From positions 64,001-128,000 of the IMG/VR virus record IMGVR_UViG_3300045988_160259: a stretch of 64,000 nt of DNA. One strand, written 5' to 3'. The stretch is from a virus. The notes beneath the pieces are model-generated. The model was given only the letters and a program-made list of their open reading frames with translations, was not told the origin of the DNA and did not search any database. Position 1 is the first letter of the stretch, and each line of letters starts with the position of its first letter. Positions 9,512-57,122 of the stretch are shown piece by piece. The translations under genes and the position numbers were made by a program.

Positions 9512-9796
9512 ATGTTAGGATATAAAATCTATTTCAATGGAAACGAATTTGTAGCAGATAATACTGCAATGGAAGTTCAGAATATGCCATTTGATTCAAC
9601 TACGATGTGGTTTGCGAACAAGAAATCCGCAAATGATGCCGTAGAAAAGTATAATGCAAATGATTTAAAAGATGTCAAAAAATGTAAGGAATGCGGAGAA
9701 TATTTTTGGCAAACAGATGAAGAAAGAATATGGTTTACTGATAGGAATATGAAAGCTCCTTGCAGATGTTATTCTTGCAGAAAAAAGAAACACTGA
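9512..9796 (+). CDS. hypothetical zinc-ribbon protein (94 aa)
   Basis: C-terminal CKECG...CRCYSCR; SD agaggag upstream. Confidence 0.65.
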   Translation: MLGYKIYFNGNEFVADNTAMEVQNMPFDSTTMWFANKKSANDAVEKYNANDLKDVKKCKECGEYFWQTDEERIWFTDRNMKAPCRCYSCRKKKH

Positions 9797-37722: not shown

Positions 37723-38433
37723 ATGAGATACAAGTATTTAACAGAGACTCAAATAGAGAAATTAGAATCTCTTACGCCAGAAGAAGCAGAAAAAATTCAG
37801 CAAACGTATTTAGATGATGATATGCGTGAGCTTAAAAAAATCTGCAAAACTTTGATTTACAAAAAGAAAAAATCATCGCAGGATTTACCGACACTTCATG
37901 ATGCAGAACTTGAAAGCCTAGCAGTAGAAGTTTTTCTGTCAAGTTTACTCAAATATAATTCGGATGTCAAATGCACTTTTAAAACGTATTTATATGGAAA
38001 TATTTGGAGAAAATATTGGACATATACAAGAGATATCGAACGTAAAAAACGCTGTGTTTTTGTTCCAGATATTGATGAAGAAACTGGCAAGCAAAAAGTT
38101 GACAAAGAAGGAAATCCTAAAGAGAAGCCTGTATTTGATATCTCCATATATTCTCAAATCGATGAAAATGGAATGCAACTCTGGGAAACATTTGTATCTG
38201 GAAAAACCGTGGAAGATGTCGTCTTTCAAAATGATCAAGAAATGTCATCTGCGATGAGAGAATATACTAATAAGTTATCAAGAGTACAGAGTGTAATTTT
38301 ACATATGCTTGCAGATGGATTTAATGAAGAAGAAATTCTTCAGAATTTACATATTTCTAAGTCACTCTATAACGATAGCTTAAAAGCTATCCGGAACAAC
38401 TCAAATACAAGAATACTTAGGAGGGATTATTAA
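37723..38433 (+). CDS. sigma-70-family (ECF-like) RNA polymerase sigma factor
   Basis: Region-2-like LESLAVEVFLSSLLKYNSDVKCTFKTYLYGNIWRKYWTYTRD and region-4 HTH LSRVQSVILHMLADGFNEEEILQNLHISKSLYNDSLKAIRNN. Start moved from GTG 37714 to ATG after SD aaggtgg. Confidence 0.6.
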   Translation: MRYKYLTETQIEKLESLTPEEAEKIQQTYLDDDMRELKKICKTLIYKKKKSSQDLPTLHDAELESLAVEVFLSSLLKYNSDVKCTFKTYLYGNIWRKYWTYTRDIERKKRCVFVPDIDEETGKQKVDKEGNPKEKPVFDISIYSQIDENGMQLWETFVSGKTVEDVVFQNDQEMSSAMREYTNKLSRVQSVILHMLADGFNEEEILQNLHISKSLYNDSLKAIRNNSNTRILRRDY

Positions 38434-39935
38434 TGTTAGATGAATACAGAATCGAACAGATGGGCGTAGGAGCTTATGTTGATAGTATTGATGAGGAAGT
38501 TATTACTGTTGATCAGGCAGTCCAGAGAGCGTTTTGTTGGTCAAATGAAATGATCAATAATTTGATTTATAGTACTGTATCTCCAAAACGGATTTACATT
38601 CCAAACATTATTCTTGCAGAAGAAAAAAGAGAAGATGGGCTTACTACTACATACGTAGTGGACGGTGGTCAGAGAACCGAAGCGCTCAGACGTTTTGTAT
38701 TTGATGGGCATAAGATCTCTAAATCAATCCGGAATAGATATGTGACTTATCAAGGAAATAAACTGGATAAAAATGGAAAACCTATGAGAGATGAAAATGG
38801 AAAACTGATCAAAGAAATCAAAACATTTGATCTGGTTAATAAAACTTATAATGATTTTCCACCAGAACTGAAAAAGAGAATGAGATCATGTCAGTTGTCT
38901 GCTGCAATTTATCAGGAATGTACTCCAGAAGATACCTGCGATCTTGTCATGTTATATAACTCTACTATTCCAATGAATGTAAGCCAGAAGGCGTTTACTT
39001 ACATTGGTACATTTGCGGATAAAATTAAACGGATTAAAGATAATAATCGTTTTCTTAAAGATTGTACGATGCTGAATGAGTTAGACAAGAAAAAAGGCAT
39101 CTGGGAAAGAGTGATCATCGAATGCGTTATGGCGATGTTTCATTTAGAAGAATGGAAAAAGGCGCCAAGGGATATCTGCAAGTATCTTAATGAGAACGGA
39201 ACAGAAGAAGAATTTGATACACTGAACAAATACTTTAATATGTTAATTCCTTACGCAGATAAACTCGATCATACAGAAGTAGCTGAATTATTTGTGTCAA
39301 AAGATTTTATGGTATGGATGACTCTTATGAAAAGAGCCTTAGATGAAGGAGTTTCACCAGAAAATTTTGGAAAATTCCTGATTGCATTTAATGACATGAA
39401 AGAAATCAAAGTCAATGATACTGATTGGATTGAAATAGAACAGGATAAACACACAAAGGACAAGAAAGTAATTCAGCAGAAAATTGATTATTTACATACT
39501 TTATTAGTGGATTTTTTACATATTAAAGAGAATAAACATAATGAAGATGCAGAGAGCGAAAGTATCAAAGACTCATCAGAAAATTCAGAGGGTGAAGAAT
39601 CTGCAATCATTGGTGTTGATGATCGTATTGATCAGAATGATATTGATTTTGTACATACTCATGTAAATGAGAAAGTAGATCCAGACGACATCGAATTTTA
39701 CAACGAGTGTCTGCAGGATACAAAAGTGTCTGCAAATGTTTATCAGCAGTGTAAAACAGCGTTAATTGCATTGATGGTTTATGCAGCGCAGAATAATCAG
39801 GATCAGGAATTTGAACAGTGGATTGGAGAATATCAGAATGCAGATGATGAATATAGTTCCAATCAGGGTATTAATTTCAGATTCATGAAACGAGATTTTG
39901 AGAATTATCTTGTTAAAAATGGAAATGCAGCGTAA
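38433..39935 (+). CDS. DUF262 / DGQHR-like (ParB-superfamily) domain protein
   Basis: 500 aa; N-terminal VDQAVQRAFCWSNEMINNLI...YVVDGGQRTEALRRF resembles the DUF262 QR..W...DGQQR motifs. No C-terminal His-Me finger recognised; acidic C-terminal third. Confidence 0.55.
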   Translation: MLDEYRIEQMGVGAYVDSIDEEVITVDQAVQRAFCWSNEMINNLIYSTVSPKRIYIPNIILAEEKREDGLTTTYVVDGGQRTEALRRFVFDGHKISKSIRNRYVTYQGNKLDKNGKPMRDENGKLIKEIKTFDLVNKTYNDFPPELKKRMRSCQLSAAIYQECTPEDTCDLVMLYNSTIPMNVSQKAFTYIGTFADKIKRIKDNNRFLKDCTMLNELDKKKGIWERVIIECVMAMFHLEEWKKAPRDICKYLNENGTEEEFDTLNKYFNMLIPYADKLDHTEVAELFVSKDFMVWMTLMKRALDEGVSPENFGKFLIAFNDMKEIKVNDTDWIEIEQDKHTKDKKVIQQKIDYLHTLLVDFLHIKENKHNEDAESESIKDSSENSEGEESAIIGVDDRIDQNDIDFVHTHVNEKVDPDDIEFYNECLQDTKVSANVYQQCKTALIALMVYAAQNNQDQEFEQWIGEYQNADDEYSSNQGINFRFMKRDFENYLVKNGNAA

Positions 39936-40644: not shown

Positions 40645-40657
40645 AAGACTGATTTCA
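40642..40657 (+). repeat. junction hairpin TGAAA-N6-TTTCA
   Basis: aTGAAAgactgaTTTCAt; TGA is the stop of 40453-40644, the last gene before the CRISPR locus. Confidence 0.7.
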
Positions 40658-40668
40658 TAGGAAAATAA

Positions 40669-40716
40669 ATACTATATATAGTGGTCGAGCAAAAATAAAA
40701 CCACTATATATAGTAT
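40669..40716. repeat. perfect 17-bp inverted repeat (hairpin/palindrome) upstream of the CRISPR array
   Basis: AATACTATATATAGTGG 40669-40685 pairs with CCACTATATATAGTATT 40700-40716; 14-nt loop tcgagcaaaaataa; no U-run after it. Confidence 0.8.
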
Positions 40717-40790: not shown

Positions 40791-40958
40791 GTTTTAGAGG
40801 AATGTAATTTTATATGGTTGCAAATCGATACTTTTCGCATTCTGTCCGTTGATGTCGTTTTAGAGGAATGTAATTTTATAGGGTTGCAAAACCGAAAAGA
40901 AAAGCAGAGGAGCAGTAGACTAGTTTTAGAGGAATGTAATTTTATAGGGTTGCAAAAC
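40791..40958 (+). CRISPR. mini CRISPR array, type-II-like repeats (3 repeats, 2 spacers)
   Basis: 36-nt repeat GTTTTAGAGGAATGTAATTTTATAGGGTTGCAAAAC at 40857-40892 and 40923-40958. The copy at 40791-40826 has 2 mismatches (positions 25 and 35). 30-nt spacers: GATACTTTTCGCATTCTGTCCGTTGATGTC (40827-40856) and CGAAAAGAAAAGCAGAGGAGCAGTAGACTA (40893-40922). Confidence 0.9.
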
Positions 40959-41201
40959 CTCAAAATAAAATAACTCTATAAAATTAAGACGTTAAATAAA
41001 AATAGACTTAGATTTAATCTACGTTATTACAAGAAAATATATTGATATATAACTCTAGTATCAAATTATATCGTTTAAATTTAAACATGCGTTACGTCTA
41101 ACTTTCTTGTCGCAAGTGATTTAAACATTGTGAACTTGTAATAACATTGTCAAAGAGTATTACCGACTATAAGTCGAGTTATTAATTAAAAGGAGAAAAT
41201 T
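40959..41201 (+). ncRNA. candidate tracrRNA / omega-RNA scaffold (anti-repeat plus structured region) between the array and iscB
   Basis: TAACTCTATAAAATTA (40971-40986) is complementary to repeat positions 15-30 (14 Watson-Crick + 2 G-U). The 243-nt non-coding stretch contains many short hairpins/palindromes, e.g. TAGATttaATCTA 41009-41021, GTTTAAATTTAAAC 41073-41086 and CGACTataAGTCG 41164-41176. Exact ends unknown. Confidence 0.6.
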
Positions 41202-42749
41202 ATGAAATATTTAGATTTTACTTTAATGGTAGATAAAAATAATAAACCATGTGTACCGATTTTAAACGGTAGAGCTGGTTATTTGCTTAGAAATAATAAA
41301 GCAAAAATTATTAATCATGATCCATTAGTAATAAAACGAATAGACGATTATAAGAGTGATTTTGAAAATAGGGATATTTTCGAGTTAAAAATTGATAGTG
41401 GATATTTGAACATAGGATTTTCTGTCAGTGATAATTATCATGAGTATTTAGCTGGACAAGTCGAATTATTAAAAGGAATGTCGGATAGATTAACAAATCG
41501 AAATGGATATCGAAGAACACGAAGATCCAGAATTAGGTACAGGAAAAATAAAAATGTTGATTACAAAACCATACATAATCAAACATATAAAAATGGAAAT
41601 GAAGAAGGATGGTTTGCTCCATCAATACAACATAAAATTGATTCACATATTCGTTTAATAGATAAAATTGCGTCATGGGTTCCAGTAGATAAGGTAATTG
41701 TAGAAGTTGCTAAATTTGATATCCAGATGATAAAAGCTTTAGCTGACGGGAAAGAAATATCAGGAAAAGATTATCAAAATGGAGAAATGAAAGGATATGA
41801 AAATGCAGCAGCTTATGTTAGAGATAGAGATAAACATACATGTCGGTTGTGTGGCGCAAATAAAAATGTTGTGATTGAAGTTCATCATATCCAACCGCGT
41901 TCAAAGGGAGGAACCGATAAACCAAGTAATCTAATATCTTTATGTCATAGTTGTCATCGGAAGGTGCATTCCAATAATAACGACAATAAATATTTTGAGA
42001 AAGTCAAGAGTATGAAGTTATCGGATACATACAAAGACAGTACTTATATGAATATGGTTCGTTGGGAACTTTTTGAAAGGCTTTCTGGCAAATATGACGT
42101 CAAAGTTGGGTATGGATATCAAACAAAAATTAATAGAAGGAATGCCGGTTTAAGAAAATTTCATTATACGGATGCTGTTTGTATTAATGATTACAAGGAT
42201 GTGACACTGACGGAGAATATCTATATTGTAGATCAAAAACGATGCAATGACAGGAGTATGGAGACATTTAGTGATGCAAAATACATAGATGTACGTGATG
42301 GAAAAGAAAAAAGTGGTAATACATTATATAAAGAAAGGCTTCCAAATGCTCCGTCTAAACGAGTCACACAAAAAGAATATATAAACAATATGAGACAATT
42401 TCGTGGTAAGAAAATTAAACCTGGTAAACGCACTTTTGTTTGTAATTCATATTGTTTGAAATGTGGAGATTTAATTTACATAAGTAGTGGAACGCATAAA
42501 GGAAATATCGCAGAAGTAGAATCCATGCAAAAACTACCTAATGGCAATTTCAAAATACGATTTACATATAAAGCACAAACAGTCAAATACCCTTCTATAA
42601 GTATAAAACCAGAAGAATATGAATTATTAAAGAGCAATTTATTAGACAAAGTAAAAATTGTAAGAACAAGGCGCGGAATGATTTGGAGAAAATATAATCG
42701 TCTAGAGTACGAAGCGACCCATACGGATCAAGAAGGAATGGCTGTATAA
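41202..42749 (+). CDS. iscB: IscB-like RNA-guided RuvC/HNH nuclease (CRISPR-associated, Cas9-ancestor architecture)
   Basis: 515 aa. PLMP-type N-terminus VDKNNKPCVPILNGRAGYLLRNNKAKII; RuvC-I LKIDSGYLNIGFSV (D65); Arg-rich bridge helix RNGYRRTRRSRIRYRKNK; GWFAPSIQHKIDSHIRLI...KVIVEVAKFD (RuvC-II E168); HNH CRLCG..EVHHIQPRSKGGTDKPSNLISLCHSCHRKVH; RuvC-III RKFHYTDAVC. Only about 45 aa separate the bridge helix from RuvC-II, so there is no REC lobe. SD aaaggaga upstream. Confidence 0.85.
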   Translation: MKYLDFTLMVDKNNKPCVPILNGRAGYLLRNNKAKIINHDPLVIKRIDDYKSDFENRDIFELKIDSGYLNIGFSVSDNYHEYLAGQVELLKGMSDRLTNRNGYRRTRRSRIRYRKNKNVDYKTIHNQTYKNGNEEGWFAPSIQHKIDSHIRLIDKIASWVPVDKVIVEVAKFDIQMIKALADGKEISGKDYQNGEMKGYENAAAYVRDRDKHTCRLCGANKNVVIEVHHIQPRSKGGTDKPSNLISLCHSCHRKVHSNNNDNKYFEKVKSMKLSDTYKDSTYMNMVRWELFERLSGKYDVKVGYGYQTKINRRNAGLRKFHYTDAVCINDYKDVTLTENIYIVDQKRCNDRSMETFSDAKYIDVRDGKEKSGNTLYKERLPNAPSKRVTQKEYINNMRQFRGKKIKPGKRTFVCNSYCLKCGDLIYISSGTHKGNIAEVESMQKLPNGNFKIRFTYKAQTVKYPSISIKPEEYELLKSNLLDKVKIVRTRRGMIWRKYNRLEYEATHTDQEGMAV

Positions 42750-42938: not shown

Positions 42939-43059
42939 GTCATGCGATTTAACATGCTTAAAAATGAGGTCGGAAATGGTTCCCGACGCACTCTGCAAAG
43001 AGTACCTGAGATGATGGATACGCCGCCCATCCATTTTTAGGCATTTCAAATCGCATGAC
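42939..43059 (+). ncRNA. structured non-coding element (multi-stem RNA or attenuator) downstream of the iscB locus
   Basis: Closing 12-bp helix GTCATGCGATTT 42939-42950 / AAATCGCATGAC 43048-43059. Inner hairpins: GTCGG..CCGAC, ACTCT-GCAA-AGAGT (GNRA loop), and ATGGAT-acgccgccc-ATCCAT followed by TTTTT. An alternative pairing of TAAAAATG 42959-42966 with CATTTTTA 43032-43039 competes with the terminator-like hairpin. Confidence 0.45.
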
Positions 43060-47186: not shown

Positions 47187-47423
47187 ATGACGCAAGAAGA
47201 ACACGATCGAAAAATTCTTATTGAACGAGCAGCTGTAGAAGAACTTTTACTAAAAGAACATATTAGTGTTCCTACAGCGTATGAACGGGCCAGAGAATTG
47301 GAATACGAGAGAAAGAAATCTCTCTATTGGATGTGTCGATGCGATGGCACAGTAGCAGACGATGTATCGTTTGATGATTGGATAAAGAAATTTGATCAAG
47401 TAAGAGAGGAGAATAAACTGTGA
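47187..47423 (+). CDS. hypothetical protein (78 aa)
   Basis: ORF 47178-47423 trimmed to ATG after SD aaggtg. Confidence 0.6.
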   Translation: MTQEEHDRKILIERAAVEELLLKEHISVPTAYERARELEYERKKSLYWMCRCDGTVADDVSFDDWIKKFDQVREENKL

Positions 47424-47932
47424 AAACATTAATTGTTGTAGATGTACAGAATGATTTCGTAAATGGGAGCCTTGGATCGGAAGAAGCACAGGCGATCATT
47501 CCGAATGTAAAAAAGAAAATTGAGGAGTATTACAATCGTGGAGATCAAATTATCTTTACAAGAGATACGCATTATGACGATTACTTAAATACTCCGGAGG
47601 GAAGAAAACTTCCAGTAAAACATTGTATTTTTGGAACAAATGGATGGAAGGTTGTGAGCGACCTTGTGGTTCCTAACTGCAGATATGTAAACAAAAGTAC
47701 TTTTGGAATTTTGCAGTGGAGAAATATGACATGGATTGGAGATGGTGGTATCGATCTGGTCGGTTTGTGTACGGATATATGTGTAATTTCAAATGCATTA
47801 GTACTTAAAGCTATGTTTCCAAATACGGAAATTACAGTAGACGCAGGCTGTTGCGCGGGATCTACACCAGAGAGACATAAGGCAGCACTCGAAGTTATGA
47901 AAAGTTGCCAGATTAATGTGATTGGAGAATAG
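47420..47932 (+). CDS. pncA: isochorismatase-family hydrolase, probable nicotinamidase (PncA-like)
   Basis: KTLIVVDVQNDFVNGSLG (catalytic Asp), NKSTFG (Lys), VGLCTDICV (Cys); GTG start overlapping the previous stop. Confidence 0.7.
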   Translation: MKTLIVVDVQNDFVNGSLGSEEAQAIIPNVKKKIEEYYNRGDQIIFTRDTHYDDYLNTPEGRKLPVKHCIFGTNGWKVVSDLVVPNCRYVNKSTFGILQWRNMTWIGDGGIDLVGLCTDICVISNALVLKAMFPNTEITVDAGCCAGSTPERHKAALEVMKSCQINVIGE

Positions 47933-47936
47933 AGAT

Positions 47937-48752
47937 ATGATTACTTTAAATAGTAAAGAAGTAAAAGTAGAACACTTTCCAGATGGAACACAGAGAATCG
48001 TACTAGATGATTGTTTTTATCAGAAATATAACAACATTACATGGAAGTATGAAAAAGAAGAAGAACTTTCAACGCTGATTTATATTACAAAACATTTAAA
48101 AAATTTTCCATATATTAAATCAATTGATCTTACAATGTTTTATCTTCCGAATGCCAGAATGGACAGAATCTATGATCATGGCGAGGTTTTTACATTAAAA
48201 GGGTTCGCTGATGTTATTAATTGGCTCGAATTTGATAGAGTAGAGGTACTTGATGTTCATAGTAATGTTGGAGCAGCGCTTTTGAATAGAGTATATGTCT
48301 TTAATCCAAGAGAATATATTGATGAAGTAATTGAGCAGATTAGTAAAGAAAATCTTATTCTTTATTTTCCGGATGCCGGTAGTTCGAAAAGATATTCTGG
48401 ATTGTTTTCTGACATTCCGTATTGCTATGGTGAGAAAAATCGAGATTGGAATACAGGAAAAATTCTTGGACTCAAAATCAGAGATAACGGTATTGATCTT
48501 AAGGGTAAAAAAGTTTTGATGATTGATGACATCATTTCATATGGCGGTTCTTTATATTATAGTGCAAAAGCGTTGAAAGAACGTGGCATAGATAGAATTT
48601 ATGCTTATGCATCACATACCGAAAATTCAGTTCTTGATAGAGAAAAAGGAACATTAATCAAATCACTTGATGATGGAACAGTTGAAAGATTATTTACGAC
48701 AAATAGTCTTTTTACAGGAAAACATGAAAAGATCACAGTTATGGAGGTCTAA
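47937..48752 (+). CDS. ribose-phosphate pyrophosphokinase (Prs)-like protein; candidate ADPR-pyrophosphate synthetase (Adps) of NARP1
   Basis: N-terminal FPDGT..I and C-terminal GKKVLMIDDIISYGGSLYYSAKALKERGIDRIYAYASHT (PRTase/Prs nucleotide-binding loop). Start moved to ATG after SD ggagaata. Confidence 0.65.
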   Translation: MITLNSKEVKVEHFPDGTQRIVLDDCFYQKYNNITWKYEKEEELSTLIYITKHLKNFPYIKSIDLTMFYLPNARMDRIYDHGEVFTLKGFADVINWLEFDRVEVLDVHSNVGAALLNRVYVFNPREYIDEVIEQISKENLILYFPDAGSSKRYSGLFSDIPYCYGEKNRDWNTGKILGLKIRDNGIDLKGKKVLMIDDIISYGGSLYYSAKALKERGIDRIYAYASHTENSVLDREKGTLIKSLDDGTVERLFTTNSLFTGKHEKITVMEV

Positions 48753-48753
48753 T

Positions 48754-50226
48754 ATGAGAAACATTTCTTTTATGCTGATGGCAGACACATATAAAAATAC
48801 AAATCCAGATGCTCTTCCGGCAGGTCTTACAAAATTAACTTCCTATATTACTCCAAGAAAGTCAATGTTTAAAAATCTGAATGAAGTAGTGTTCTTTGGA
48901 TTACAGGGCTTTATTAAGGAATATATGATTGAATTAGCAAACGAAACGTTCTTCAAAAGACCAAAAGAAGAGGTTGTTGCTGAGTACAAAAAATACTTAG
49001 ATAATCAGATCGGTTCCCAGAGCTATGATCTTGGACGTATCGAAAAATTATGGGATCTGCAGTATTTACCTGTAGAGATCAAAGCTCTTCCAGAAGGATC
49101 TGTTGTAACAATGGGAGTCCCGTGTATCGAGATGAGTAACGCACATCCGGATTTCGCATGGACGGTACAATGGCTGGAATGCATTATGCAGTCTTTTATT
49201 TTTGGGACATGCAACTGGGCAACTGTAGGTCATAAATATAAAACACTTGCAAATGAATTTTACGAGAAAACTACAGATGGTGCTAATCCTGCAATGGCTA
49301 TGGCGGATTTTGGATTCAGAGGACTCGGCATTGAGAACGGAGTTCATGCAAGTTCTTCATGGCTGCTATCTTTCAATAAAACTTCTACAATTCCTGCAAC
49401 TCAGTATATTGATAAAATGTACGATGCGGATTGTGTTAAGAACCATATTGGTATTGGAGCAGTTAGCCTGGAACATGCAACCGTATGCAGTAATCTGGCT
49501 GTATGCGAGACAGAAGAAAATCTGTTAAGAAGATTACTGATTGATACATATAAGAATACATCTTTCAGTTATGTCTCTGATACATTTGATTACTGGAACC
49601 TTATTGACGAAACACTTCCAAAACTGAGAAAAGAAATTGAAGAGCATAATGGTAAATTCCTTGTACGTCCTGATAGCGGCGATATCGTTGAGATTTCAGT
49701 AAAAACTGTTCAGAAATTATATCAGCTTTTTGGTGGAACTGTAAACTCAAAAGGTTATAAGGAGTTAAATCCAAAAATTGGAATCATTTACGGAGATGGT
49801 TGTCAGTACAGTAAGATCAAAGAGATTTGGACACAGCTTGAAGGATTAGGATTTGCAGCAGATACGATTCTTTTTGGAGTAGGTGCGTTTTCTTTCTCTG
49901 CAATGTGTACGCCAGAAGATGGAATGGTTTGCTTAACAAGAGATACTTTTGGATTTGCAATGAAGAGCACCTATTGTGTAATTGATGGCAAAGAATATAC
50001 CATTCAGAAGAATCCAAAAACAGATAAAAATAATTTAAAGAAATCACATAAAGGTCTTTGCCGTGTTGTGAAAGAAGGTAATAATTTTGTATGCCATGAT
50101 GGATATACAGAAGATACGATTCCAGAAGAAAATGAATTAAAACTTATCTTTAAAAATGGAGAATTAGTAAAAGAGCAGACATTTGGAGAAATCAGAGAAA
50201 GACTGAATGGAGAAAGCTATGATTGA
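48754..50226 (+). CDS. nicotinamide phosphoribosyltransferase (NAMPT/NadV)-family protein; candidate Namat of NARP1
   Basis: LMADTYK, MADFGFRG, LVRPDSGD, IIYGDG and LFGVG are NAMPT-family motifs. Start moved to ATG after SD tggaggt (ORF track 48667). Confidence 0.75.
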   Translation: MRNISFMLMADTYKNTNPDALPAGLTKLTSYITPRKSMFKNLNEVVFFGLQGFIKEYMIELANETFFKRPKEEVVAEYKKYLDNQIGSQSYDLGRIEKLWDLQYLPVEIKALPEGSVVTMGVPCIEMSNAHPDFAWTVQWLECIMQSFIFGTCNWATVGHKYKTLANEFYEKTTDGANPAMAMADFGFRGLGIENGVHASSSWLLSFNKTSTIPATQYIDKMYDADCVKNHIGIGAVSLEHATVCSNLAVCETEENLLRRLLIDTYKNTSFSYVSDTFDYWNLIDETLPKLRKEIEEHNGKFLVRPDSGDIVEISVKTVQKLYQLFGGTVNSKGYKELNPKIGIIYGDGCQYSKIKEIWTQLEGLGFAADTILFGVGAFSFSAMCTPEDGMVCLTRDTFGFAMKSTYCVIDGKEYTIQKNPKTDKNNLKKSHKGLCRVVKEGNNFVCHDGYTEDTIPEENELKLIFKNGELVKEQTFGEIRERLNGESYD

Positions 50227-56021: not shown

Positions 56022-57122
56022 ATGATGAAAGACATTAAGATTGTGATTGGTGGATCGTTTGGCGACGAGGGAAAAGGGTTGATAACAAATTATTTTTCTC
56101 AAAAGAAAAATAATATTGTTATATGTTCTAATGGTGGAGCGCAACGAGGGCATACGGTTACGTCACCAGATGGCATTCGACATGTCTTTCATCATTTTGG
56201 ATCTGGCACGTTTAATGGGGCAGCTACATATCTGCCAGAAGATTTTATTTTAAATCCTATTATTTTCAAACAGGAATATGATGAGTTGACCAATCTAGGA
56301 TATCGACCAGAAGTTTATATCAACAAAAACTGTATGATTACGACACCTTGGGATATGATGGCGAATCAGATCATTGAAGAAAGCCGTGGAAAGGACAAGC
56401 ATGGTAGCTGTGGGCTTGGAATTTTTGAGACGATAAAAAGATATAAAGCTGGTGTAATAAATGTTAATTTTTCTATCAGAGACTATTATATAAAGCAGTT
56501 TGAAAAAGAGAAGATATCATTGTCTTATAAGTGGGAAAAGTTATTTCTTGACGATGGAATTTTTCATCATTTTTTGAACGACTTGGATTTTATGAACATT
56601 CATAGTGTTGAAATGGAAACAAATGATTTTTTAAATGTTTTCGATAATATTATCTTTGAAGCAGCACAAGGGCTTCTTTTGGATCAGAATAATACAGATT
56701 ATTTTCCACATCTTACACCATCAAATACTGGTATCAAAAATCCAAAGAAAATTATTGAAAATACTAACTGGGCTGATGATATCAATATTGAAACCTGTTA
56801 TGTATCCCGTACATATTTAACAAGACATGGAGCAGGAAAATTTCCTAGCGAATGCGACAAATATTTAATCAATCCGTACATGTTTGATAAAACAAATATT
56901 CCAAATCCGCATCAGGATACATTAAGATATGGAATGTTAGACTTAAAAGAATTATACGATAGATGTGAAAAAGATGTTGGAACATTCGGAGATAAGAAAT
57001 CAATTGCTATCACACACGGTAATGAATATTCGGTTGATATGAAATTGTTAGAAGAATTATTTGACGAATGGAATATTTATTATTCTGACGGTGAAACAAG
57101 AAATGATATTTATGAATTATAA
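56022..57122 (+). CDS. adenylosuccinate synthetase (PurA)-family enzyme, short PurZ-like form
   Basis: 366 aa; IVIGGSFGDEGKG (P-loop, PurA GxQWGDEGKG), NGGAQRGHTV (PurA GGHNAGHT), FEAAQGLLLDQNNTDYFPHLTPSNT (PurA FEGAQG.LLDiDhGTYP.VTSSN), LTRHGAGKFPSE (PurA TRVG.GPFPTE). Confidence 0.7.
   Translation: MMKDIKIVIGGSFGDEGKGLITNYFSQKKNNIVICSNGGAQRGHTVTSPDGIRHVFHHFGSGTFNGAATYLPEDFILNPIIFKQEYDELTNLGYRPEVYINKNCMITTPWDMMANQIIEESRGKDKHGSCGLGIFETIKRYKAGVINVNFSIRDYYIKQFEKEKISLSYKWEKLFLDDGIFHHFLNDLDFMNIHSVEMETNDFLNVFDNIIFEAAQGLLLDQNNTDYFPHLTPSNTGIKNPKKIIENTNWADDINIETCYVSRTYLTRHGAGKFPSECDKYLINPYMFDKTNIPNPHQDTLRYGMLDLKELYDRCEKDVGTFGDKKSIAITHGNEYSVDMKLLEELFDEWNIYYSDGETRNDIYEL

Follow-up and report, generated by a model that had tools for sequence, protein, structure and literature searches.

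A CRISPR-associated IscB carried by large phages, with spacers that match a sibling phage

What use is an IscB nuclease to a large phage when its gene lies beside a CRISPR array, and against which DNA would such a system be aimed? The question is raised by a stretch of 64,000 nt from the IMG/VR virus record IMGVR_UViG_3300045988_160259 (positions 64,001 to 128,000 of the record; hereafter the window), which belongs to a phage of ~200 kb and carries at positions 40791-42749 a three-repeat array followed by a gene for a 515-aa IscB. An earlier note, made from the letters of the window alone, had recognized this pair and proposed that it serves inter-phage or anti-host warfare. The analysis reported here indicates that the system probably carries out RNA-guided cleavage of sibling phages. 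It is a phage-borne variant of the known CRISPR-associated IscBs (CasIscBs) and not a categorically new system.

The array, its guide-RNA scaffold and the nuclease

The array (window 40791-40958) consists of three direct repeats of 36 nt with an exact 66-nt period, all on the plus strand and separated by two spacers of 30 nt, just as the earlier note had described it. Repeat 2 (40857-40892) and repeat 3, the last one (40923-40958), are identical (GTTTTAGAGGAATGTAATTTTATAGGGTTGCAAAAC), and the scaffold-distal repeat 1 (40791-40826), the old end of the array, is degenerate, with two mismatches that had gone unmentioned. Spacer 1 (GATACTTTTCGCATTCTGTCCGTTGATGTC; 40827-40856, plus strand) is also present in the sibling phage L022, and the scaffold-proximal spacer 2 (CGAAAAGAAAAGCAGAGGAGCAGTAGACTA; 40893-40922, plus strand) was seen in this phage only. 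In their length, their ends (GTTTTAGAG...AAAAC) and the size of their spacers, these repeats have the features of the type II class.

The 243 nt that separate the last repeat from the iscB start codon at 41202, on the same strand, had been measured correctly; they are filled by an anti-repeat and an omega-RNA-like scaffold, neither of which had been described. Repeat positions 15-29 have their complement in a 15-nt stretch at 40972-40986. A tracrRNA-like (trans-activating CRISPR RNA-like) anti-repeat at 40971-41001 (plus strand) pairs in cis with positions ~2-30 of the last repeat when 40893-41201 is folded to minimum free energy, with internal loops interrupting the duplex. The predicted energy of the repeat:anti-repeat duplex is -17.9 kcal/mol, compared with -7.7 +/- 2.1 kcal/mol for shuffled repeats. 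The segment at 41003-41163 (plus strand) matches the omega-RNA family HEARO (Rfam RF02033) over model positions 53-211, and the first 52 positions of that model are missing. A small terminal hairpin (41164-41176, plus strand) closes the scaffold just before the ribosome-binding site, and its pairs (alignment columns 305-317) co-vary. When the sequences between the start of the last repeat and the ATG were folded jointly for 11 lineages by RNAalifold, 45 pairs were predicted, and 29 of them show compensatory two-sided changes, which speaks for a structured RNA independently of the Rfam match. The anti-repeat changes with the repeat in lineages WIN, L008, L014, L016, L017, L026, L028, L030 and L031. 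Read along the plus strand, the order is array, anti-repeat, truncated omega-RNA-like scaffold, ribosome-binding site and iscB. CasIscBs are characterized by an array that adjoins the scaffold and iscB and by an anti-repeat able to pair with the repeat; this arrangement is present here, and it is conserved and co-varies across the clade.

The nuclease itself (41202-42749, plus strand) was assigned to IscB by profile, sequence-to-PDB and predicted-fold comparisons, which agree with one another and with the earlier identification. It scores 277.9 bits against the NCBIfam guided_IscB equivalog model (cutoff 175, aa 9-328), contains the Pfam domains RRXRR and HNH, and matches solved IscB sequences with E=1e-29 to 1e-24 (HfmIscB at 1e-29, TbaIscB and OgeuIscB). 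The open reading frame (ORF) is real, and its motifs follow the order read from the sequence before: a PLMP-like N-terminus, RuvC-I (D65), the bridge helix, RuvC-II (E168), HNH (H228/H229, N243, H252) and RuvC-III (H321, D324). The alignment to OgeuIscB-type chains begins at residue 8 and spans KPCVP/KPLMP. P19 is nearly invariant among 66 aligned relatives, and the RuvC and HNH catalytic residues D65, E168, H228/H229, N243, H252, H321 and D324 are invariant in all of them.

An AlphaFold2 model was built from the alignment of these 66 relatives (mean predicted local distance difference test score 81, predicted template modelling (TM) score 0.72). It places the bridge helix at residues 93-110, a disordered loop and one helix (140-159) after it, and RuvC-II at 164-170; nothing else lies between residues 110 and 160, so the recognition (REC) lobe is absent, as had been claimed. 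The top Foldseek matches are IscB-omega-RNA-DNA complexes (8csz, OgeuIscB, E=1e-23), followed by IsrB, type II-D Cas9 and SaCas9, with Cas9 structures being distant fold matches only (E=1e-9 or weaker, TM ~0.3 or less). A non-guided HNH homing endonuclease was considered and rejected, given that the RuvC-I, -II and -III motifs are invariant and the top folds are all IscB, IsrB or Cas9; the PHROGs label of the family, 'HNH endonuclease' (phrog_119), is an under-description. The full list of Pfam matches (E<=1e-5; 134 ORFs in the 64-kb window of the ~200-kb phage) includes no Cas1, Cas2, Csn2 or Cas4, which bears out, for the window, the earlier statement that adaptation genes are lacking. A type II Cas9 effector was likewise rejected for a protein of 515 aa without a REC lobe and with no Cas1, Cas2 or Csn2 in the window.

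The region after RuvC-III is indeed over-long, with ~190 aa against ~140 aa in ordinary relatives, and the excess consists of an internal insertion and a conserved tail. A CxxxCxxC-like cluster (CNSYCLKC) had been pointed out in this region; only its middle Cys is kept in the clade, and a conserved C-terminal Cys cluster or zinc site was therefore rejected. No Y1 transposase domain was found among the 24 Pfam families of the 134 window ORFs, and the IscB locus occupies a conserved position among phage genes and not a transposon context. Many IscBs are without TnpA (PMC9755519), so that membership of the family does not strictly require an IS200/IS605 element.

Related phages, spacer turnover and spacer targets

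A protein search identified ~40 clusters of relatives that align over their full length (513-579 aa, 42-98% identity), and a clear score gap separates this clade from the ordinary IscBs of ~440 aa. The phage setting claimed for the locus is upheld: 21 relatives are on IMG/VR viral contigs, most of them 80-222 kb long, which also encode tape-measure and tail genes. Further relatives come from metagenomic contigs on which genes typical of phages were also identified (DNA polymerase III alpha, RNA ligases, thymidylate synthase and PARP). The same layout was found in every locus examined, down to 42% protein identity, with arrays of 1-8 repeats that have a 65-67-nt period and end 231-288 nt before the ATG. 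Between lineages the repeat sequence diverges and the anti-repeat diverges with it, and the repeat was never seen apart from IscB in the clade. The array of L001 (~9720-9760) has collapsed to one repeat joined to the anti-repeat, and all spacers are lost. A fixed upstream flank occupies the guide position there, mirroring the single-guide state of ordinary omega-RNA.

Five outgroup IscBs with 36-40% identity were compared with the clade, namely those of Clostridium phage c-st, C. difficile phage pCD1602_4, L173, L174 and L175. None of the five has an array, and each has a full HEARO RNA (86-147 bits, model positions 1-211); c-st and pCD1602_4 were accordingly rejected as cultured models of the array-bearing clade. 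PLSDB plasmids yielded only ordinary IscBs below 40% identity, and a megablast search of the window locus against GenBank phages gave no match. The simplest reading of these sequences is a single origin, in which the 5' module of omega-RNA would have been replaced, in one phage IscB lineage, by a repeat:anti-repeat duplex fed by an array. A RAGATH-18 RNA motif (64.3 bits) was also observed in c-st (L171:1197-1257), ~1 kb upstream of the ordinary IscB/HEARO locus and beside a PemK toxin gene.

The arrays differ even between near-identical loci. Different spacers were seen in phages with 97-99.7% identity between their IscB loci: the window and L022 have spacer 1 in common and differ in spacer 2, L002-L007 have one other spacer, and L005 has four others. 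The clearest case is a quartet (L015, L016, L020 and L021) with IscB loci that are 98.4-99.7% identical and the same strongly degenerate first repeat (8-9 mismatches). The first spacer is common to L015 and L016, a different first spacer is common to L020 and L021 and has already diverged at 4 positions, and the spacers nearer the scaffold are each restricted to one phage. Across the clade, degenerate repeats are always scaffold-distal. This degeneracy, together with the sharing of distal spacers, means that new spacers enter at the scaffold-proximal end, and therefore the newest spacer stands in the natural single-guide position. Near-duplicate spacer pairs (e.g. GATGTACCCGGCAGATGAAGTCCAGATGTT / GATGTACCCAGCAGATGAAGCAGAAATGTT) were observed in the largest array of the clade (L026:5219-5712, 8 repeats), as though spacers had been taken up from two alleles of a single target site.

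For the comparison with protospacers, a curated list of ~50 spacers of the clade was used. Spacer 1 of the window has one perfect match (30/30) in IMG/VR, at L025:1242-1271 on the minus strand, and a different spacer, that of L002-L007, matches the same contig perfectly (30/30) at L025:2210-2239 on the plus strand. Neither protospacer is flanked by repeats. Both lie within an ORF of 2,740 aa that matches tape-measure protein families (L025:1020-9242 = L146:10001-18103). A tape measure of this length implies a very long tail.

Relatives of the targeted tape measure are found on ~200-kb contigs, including the IscB carriers themselves; contig 152759 yields both L004 and L163, and contig 147192 both L001 and L167, as IscB and tape-measure loci. 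The targeted contig and the IscB-carrying phages have 93-97% nucleotide identity over a stretch that starts near tape-measure residue 917 and extends through the tail genes downstream of it. Upstream of this point, where both protospacers lie, the targeted contig has no similarity to the IscB-carrying phages. The tape measure is thus a mosaic, with a breakpoint inside the gene: its first ~900 residues cannot be aligned with those of the siblings, and the rest has ~90% or more protein identity. Phage 152759 carries the second spacer (that of L002-L007), and the corresponding protospacer is absent from its own tape-measure locus; no self-match of the window spacers was found within the window. 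Because the perfect matches fall in the variable part of the tape measure that the carrier is without, the targets are sibling jumbo phages, hit in the segment that distinguishes them from the carrier.

Other spacer searches added little. Thirty-one spacers, concatenated and compared with GenBank phages by blastn, gave no match, and scans with the 3' 20-mers of two L005 spacers returned only the array of L005 itself. The 3' 20-mer of L022 spacer 2 has one partial match (20/29 nt) in L170 with a different flank, possibly by chance. Another weak lead is a match of L012 spacer 1 to L010 at 27/30 positions. With respect to the warfare proposed in the earlier note, the inter-phage part is upheld by the two perfect protospacers in a sibling tape measure; the anti-host part is not supported, no bacterial target having been seen, with bacterial genome collections not searched.

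Mechanism and competing explanations

The mechanism that we favor begins with one plus-strand transcript, which would contain the mini-array, the anti-repeat and the omega-RNA-derived scaffold directly upstream of iscB. The last repeat is predicted to fold back on the anti-repeat, so that spacer 2, repeat 3, the anti-repeat and the scaffold would make up a natural single-guide RNA. IscB, whose RuvC and HNH domains are intact, would be loaded with this RNA and cut spacer-matched double-stranded DNA beside a target-adjacent motif. The intact active sites and the perfect natural protospacers lend indirect support to such cleavage. Its natural targets would be closely related jumbo phages, at the variable mosaic part of the tape measure that the carrier is without. 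The array is dynamic, with new spacers entering at the scaffold-proximal end. Given that the spacers target a sibling segment absent from the carrier, the system would exclude or out-compete siblings during co-infection or upon superinfection of a lysogen.

Several points weigh against this reading. Spacer 2, which holds the single-guide position, found no match in IMG/VR either as a full 30-mer or as its 3' 20-mer, and protospacers were obtained for only two of the ~50 curated spacers. The 3' flanks of these two (TACGTCT and CGCATCT) are alike at four positions, which is not significant, and two protospacers give no target-adjacent motif. The spacers farther upstream are putative guides, whose use would require trans pairing with a second scaffold copy. 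The HEARO match of 47.8 bits (E=9e-9) does not reach the Rfam gathering score of 83 bits. The similarity of repeats points to a host that is probably Ruminococcus or another member of the Clostridia, and transcription, processing, cleavage, the biological outcome and the agent that inserts the spacers are things that we infer.

A related explanation, which we consider unlikely as the whole account, is programmable marker exclusion or homing. Here IscB would cut the non-self allele, and recombinational repair would copy the carrier allele and its flanking genes into the sibling, in the manner of free-standing phage homing endonucleases except that the targets would be set by RNA. The position of the protospacers fits such a process, because they lie in a mosaic segment adjoining a region of 93-97% identity that could act as the repair template, and a recombination breakpoint lies near tape-measure residue 917. 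There is also precedent, since the ancestral IS200/IS605 role of IscB is homing-like and phage homing endonucleases cause marker exclusion (PMC13565253). However, iscB is ~90 kb or more away from the tape-measure gene (on contig 152759), so that the nuclease gene itself would not be co-converted. Marker exclusion is in any case a refinement of RNA-guided cleavage of siblings, not an alternative to it.

Two further explanations involve the host, and their evaluation depends on a bacterial type II-A system with closely similar repeats. When one genome was scanned for each bacterial species, using a degenerate form of the phage repeat, there was a single match, a canonical array in a Ruminococcus metagenome-assembled genome from sheep rectum (L032:1-290), whose repeat (GTTTGAGAGTAGTGTAATTTTATAGGGTAGTAAAAC) is identical to the phage repeat at 31/36 positions. 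Scanning metagenomes with this host repeat type then showed the system to be widespread in gut and rumen: most of the 113 loci obtained are from such samples, and their arrays reach 58 repeats. L067:1-6761 is a complete type II-A locus with cas9 (1,390 aa), cas1, cas2 and csn2, in which a leader ending in ...AAATTTGAG abuts the first repeat and a tracrRNA anti-repeat lies upstream of cas9. The L067 repeat is identical to that of the phage at 30/36 positions, and host and phage repeats have the core TGTAATTTTATAGGGT in common, without a difference; the type II-style appearance of the array noticed before is upheld. By comparison with the S. pyogenes repeat, for which an approximate reference sequence was used, the identity is 26/36. 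None of 1,190 host type II-A spacers matches the phage loci over at least 24 nt, so the identity of the host is unconfirmed by spacer matches. No spacers are common to the host and phage arrays compared, and the host loci compared contain no IscB.

The first of the two explanations is that the mini-array serves the host Cas9 and that IscB is a neighboring OMEGA element with a fixed guide of its own. The type II-A-like repeats (30-31/36 identical to the host repeat) invite this idea, the use of host Cas proteins by viral mini-arrays to act against kindred viruses has been documented (PMC11656645), and the host tracrRNA anti-repeat pairs partly with the phage repeat (-17.0 kcal/mol, against -9.6 +/- 2.9 kcal/mol for shuffled repeats). 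Nevertheless, pairing of the host tracrRNA is far stronger with the host repeat (-30.8 kcal/mol), and with the repeats of other phage lineages it reaches only -8 to -12 kcal/mol. This strong preference of the host tracrRNA for its own repeat suggests that it is the phage scaffold, and not host Cas9, to which the phage array is adapted. The phage anti-repeat, which forms one unit with the IscB scaffold, co-varies with the repeat in all lineages, the repeat never occurs apart from IscB in the clade, and the scaffold is without the 5' module of a stand-alone omega-RNA. We therefore regard service to the host Cas9 as improbable.

Slightly less probable still is an anti-CRISPR decoy, in which the scaffold and IscB would soak up or compete for host type II-A CRISPR RNAs (crRNAs) and thereby blunt immunity. 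In its favor, the phage anti-repeat pairs with the host repeat nearly as well as with its own (-17.0 and -17.9 kcal/mol, respectively), and the phage scaffold may capture or load host crRNAs. A phage Cas9 with a dead RuvC domain, accompanied by a phage tracrRNA, is a precedent (PMC11656645), and the neighborhood is rich in counter-defence genes, including that of an AcrIC5-like protein. Unlike the decoy Cas9, however, the nuclease residues of the phage IscB are all intact and invariant, and a pure decoy would have no need for its own array that turns over and carries sibling-phage spacers. A decayed relic, that is, an ordinary transposon-type IscB beside an inert captured CRISPR fragment, might be read from the short array with its degenerate first repeat, the single repeat left in L001 and the HEARO score under threshold, but it is largely refuted and very improbable in view of a layout kept to 42% protein identity with compensatory RNA changes, spacer turnover between loci that are 98-99.7% identical, perfect protospacer matches, and the absence of an IS200/IS605 transposase domain from the window Pfam list.

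With respect to the origin of the spacers, type II leader-anchoring sequences end in a conserved GAG (PMC7999890). The sequence CTCAAA at 40959-40964 adjoins the last repeat; its minus-strand reading, TTTGAG immediately before the repeat, resembles such an anchoring sequence. CTCAA follows the last repeat in nine of 11 lineages and has one mismatch in the other two, and on the opposite strand ...TTGAG abuts the repeat exactly at the spacer-entry end. Conservation of CTCAAA through pairing with the 5' GAG of the repeat was rejected, as L016 and L017 are without that GAG and keep CTCAA. We tentatively suggest, while judging it somewhat more likely to be wrong than right, that host Cas1-Cas2-Csn2 loads the phage array in trans via the inverted GAG motif between the last repeat and the anti-repeat. 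Spacers loaded in this way would be inserted flipped relative to the host protospacer-adjacent motif, and each new spacer would land directly in the natural single-guide position.

Genomic setting, known systems and meaning

The genes of the window are all on one strand, with a G+C content of ~33%. They encode a sliding clamp, serine and tyrosine recombinases, a C5 methyltransferase, a LexA-like DNA-binding protein, and two PemK toxins with MazE. An NAD-salvage set (isochorismatase, phosphoribosyltransferase, NAMPT and NAD synthase) is also encoded, and other counter-defence candidates are Tpt1/KptA, a macro/DarG-like protein and an AcrIC5-like anti-CRISPR; the counter-defence and lifestyle genes lie at 47420-50226 (plus strand) and elsewhere in the window. 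The anti-defence neighbors mentioned in the earlier note can therefore be given names (AcrIC5-like, NAMPT, NAD synthase, macro/DarG-like and Tpt1). This set of counter-defence and lifestyle genes (recombinases, PemK/MazE, LexA-like) suggests a temperate or phage-plasmid lifestyle, and the nearest cultured relatives are phage-plasmids of Clostridia. It is plausible that the phage lives as a temperate or plasmid prophage and that the system would guard the lysogen against related phages.

Between a small upstream gene and the array, a perfect inverted repeat of 17 bp (ATACTATATATAGTGGT / ACCACTATATATAGTAT; 40669-40716) was found, which may be a terminator, operator or promoter region controlling transcription of the array. 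A promoter-like site at 40654-40682 overlaps this palindrome, although such sites are no commoner locally than in shuffled sequence. Just upstream of the array, at 38433-39935 (plus strand), is the gene of a 500-aa GmrSD_N (DUF262) protein, which may be a nuclease-related defence or counter-defence gene; it is in the same position in L022, and L023 has a 554-aa protein without a domain match at that place. Downstream, 210 nt past the iscB stop codon, the window contains a skipping-rope RNA (Rfam RF02924; 42959-43039, plus strand), which scores 74.9 bits where the gathering score is 36.7 and is enclosed by an inverted repeat of 28 nt (42939-42966 / 43032-43059). An adenylosuccinate-synthetase homologue at 56022-57122 (plus strand) has PurZ-type 2-aminoadenine synthetases as its best PHROG, and a PurZ-like synthetase gene (L031:1024-2169) is also close to the IscB of a relative. 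The PurZ-like gene hints that the genome contains the Z base (2-aminoadenine), and such a genome could differ in its sensitivity to nucleases.

With regard to known systems, 'a few IscB systems associated with CRISPR arrays' were reported by Altae-Tran et al. 2021 (via PMC12660989, PMC11610941). Cleavage in vitro has been shown for CRISPR-associated IscBs, and one of them, DelIscB (457 aa, from an aquatic metagenome), has been engineered (PMC12660989, PMC11610941). Viruses and prophages account for about 16% of HEARO/IscB loci (PMC9755519). CRISPR systems without adaptation genes occur in huge phages, and viruses carry mini-arrays against their relatives (PMC11656645).

The system in the window resembles CasIscB, as represented by DelIscB, in having the array, anti-repeat, omega-RNA-like scaffold and iscB on one strand, a repeat:anti-repeat hairpin that makes a natural single guide, a small RuvC/HNH protein with a PLMP-like N-terminus, and no cas1, cas2 or csn2 nearby. 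It differs in being carried by a clade of large phages, in its type II-A-class repeats close to those of a gut/rumen system, in its identified sibling-phage protospacers and scaffold-proximal turnover, and in ~50 extra C-terminal residues. With canonical OMEGA IscBs (OgeuIscB, c-st, pCD1602_4) it has in common the fold, the catalytic residues and an apparent homology of the scaffold to HEARO positions 53-211, and the nearest cultured relatives are likewise on large Clostridia phages. Canonical OMEGA loci, however, have the full 211-position HEARO with one fixed guide and no array, whereas in the window the 5' module is replaced by the array-fed repeat:anti-repeat duplex.

Type II-A Cas9 systems are similar in their 36-nt repeats, 30-nt spacers, anti-repeat RNA, HNH-in-RuvC nuclease and GAG at the spacer-entry end. 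In contrast to them, the effector in the window has 515 aa and no REC lobe, the anti-repeat is fused to the scaffold in cis, and adaptation genes are missing from the window; moreover, the GAG is on the opposite strand at the transcript 3' end of the array, so that the polarity is inverted relative to a host type II-A array. Virus mini-arrays and huge-phage CRISPR systems (PMC11656645) also have short arrays, spacers against related viruses, host-like repeats and no adaptation genes. The mini-arrays, however, have host-identical repeats and use host effectors, whereas the window has a 30-31/36 repeat with its own IscB effector and scaffold; in huge-phage systems the effectors are Cas proteins such as Cas12j, and here the effector is IscB.

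IscB is absent from a 2024 review of CRISPR in mobile elements (PMC11656645). We did not find a phage clade of array-fed IscBs described in the literature, though some of the loci may already be in the Altae-Tran 2021 set. Natural targets of CasIscBs, kinship of their repeats to type II-A and the inverted polarity were also not found described, the Altae-Tran 2021 set being outside this comparison.

So far, interest in CasIscBs has been in rare curiosities and in tools for editing. The present clade would give them a function (inter-phage exclusion), and it provides a setting (large gut and rumen phages) and natural guide/target pairs. Compact nucleases of 513-579 aa that, judging from their loci, would naturally use ~30-nt CRISPR-style guides may also be a practical resource. 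The type II-A repeats, the GAG motif and the lost 5' module of omega-RNA connect an OMEGA nuclease to a co-resident Cas9 system, which bears on how Cas9 systems were assembled and suggests work on trans-adaptation and crRNA cross-talk. If trans loading by host adaptation proteins proves true, the clade would show in living phages how an IscB with its omega-RNA can capture a type II array that already exists, not forming one de novo, and it would offer a concrete, testable route by which effector, tracrRNA-like scaffold and array could have been coupled in the lineage from IscB to Cas9.

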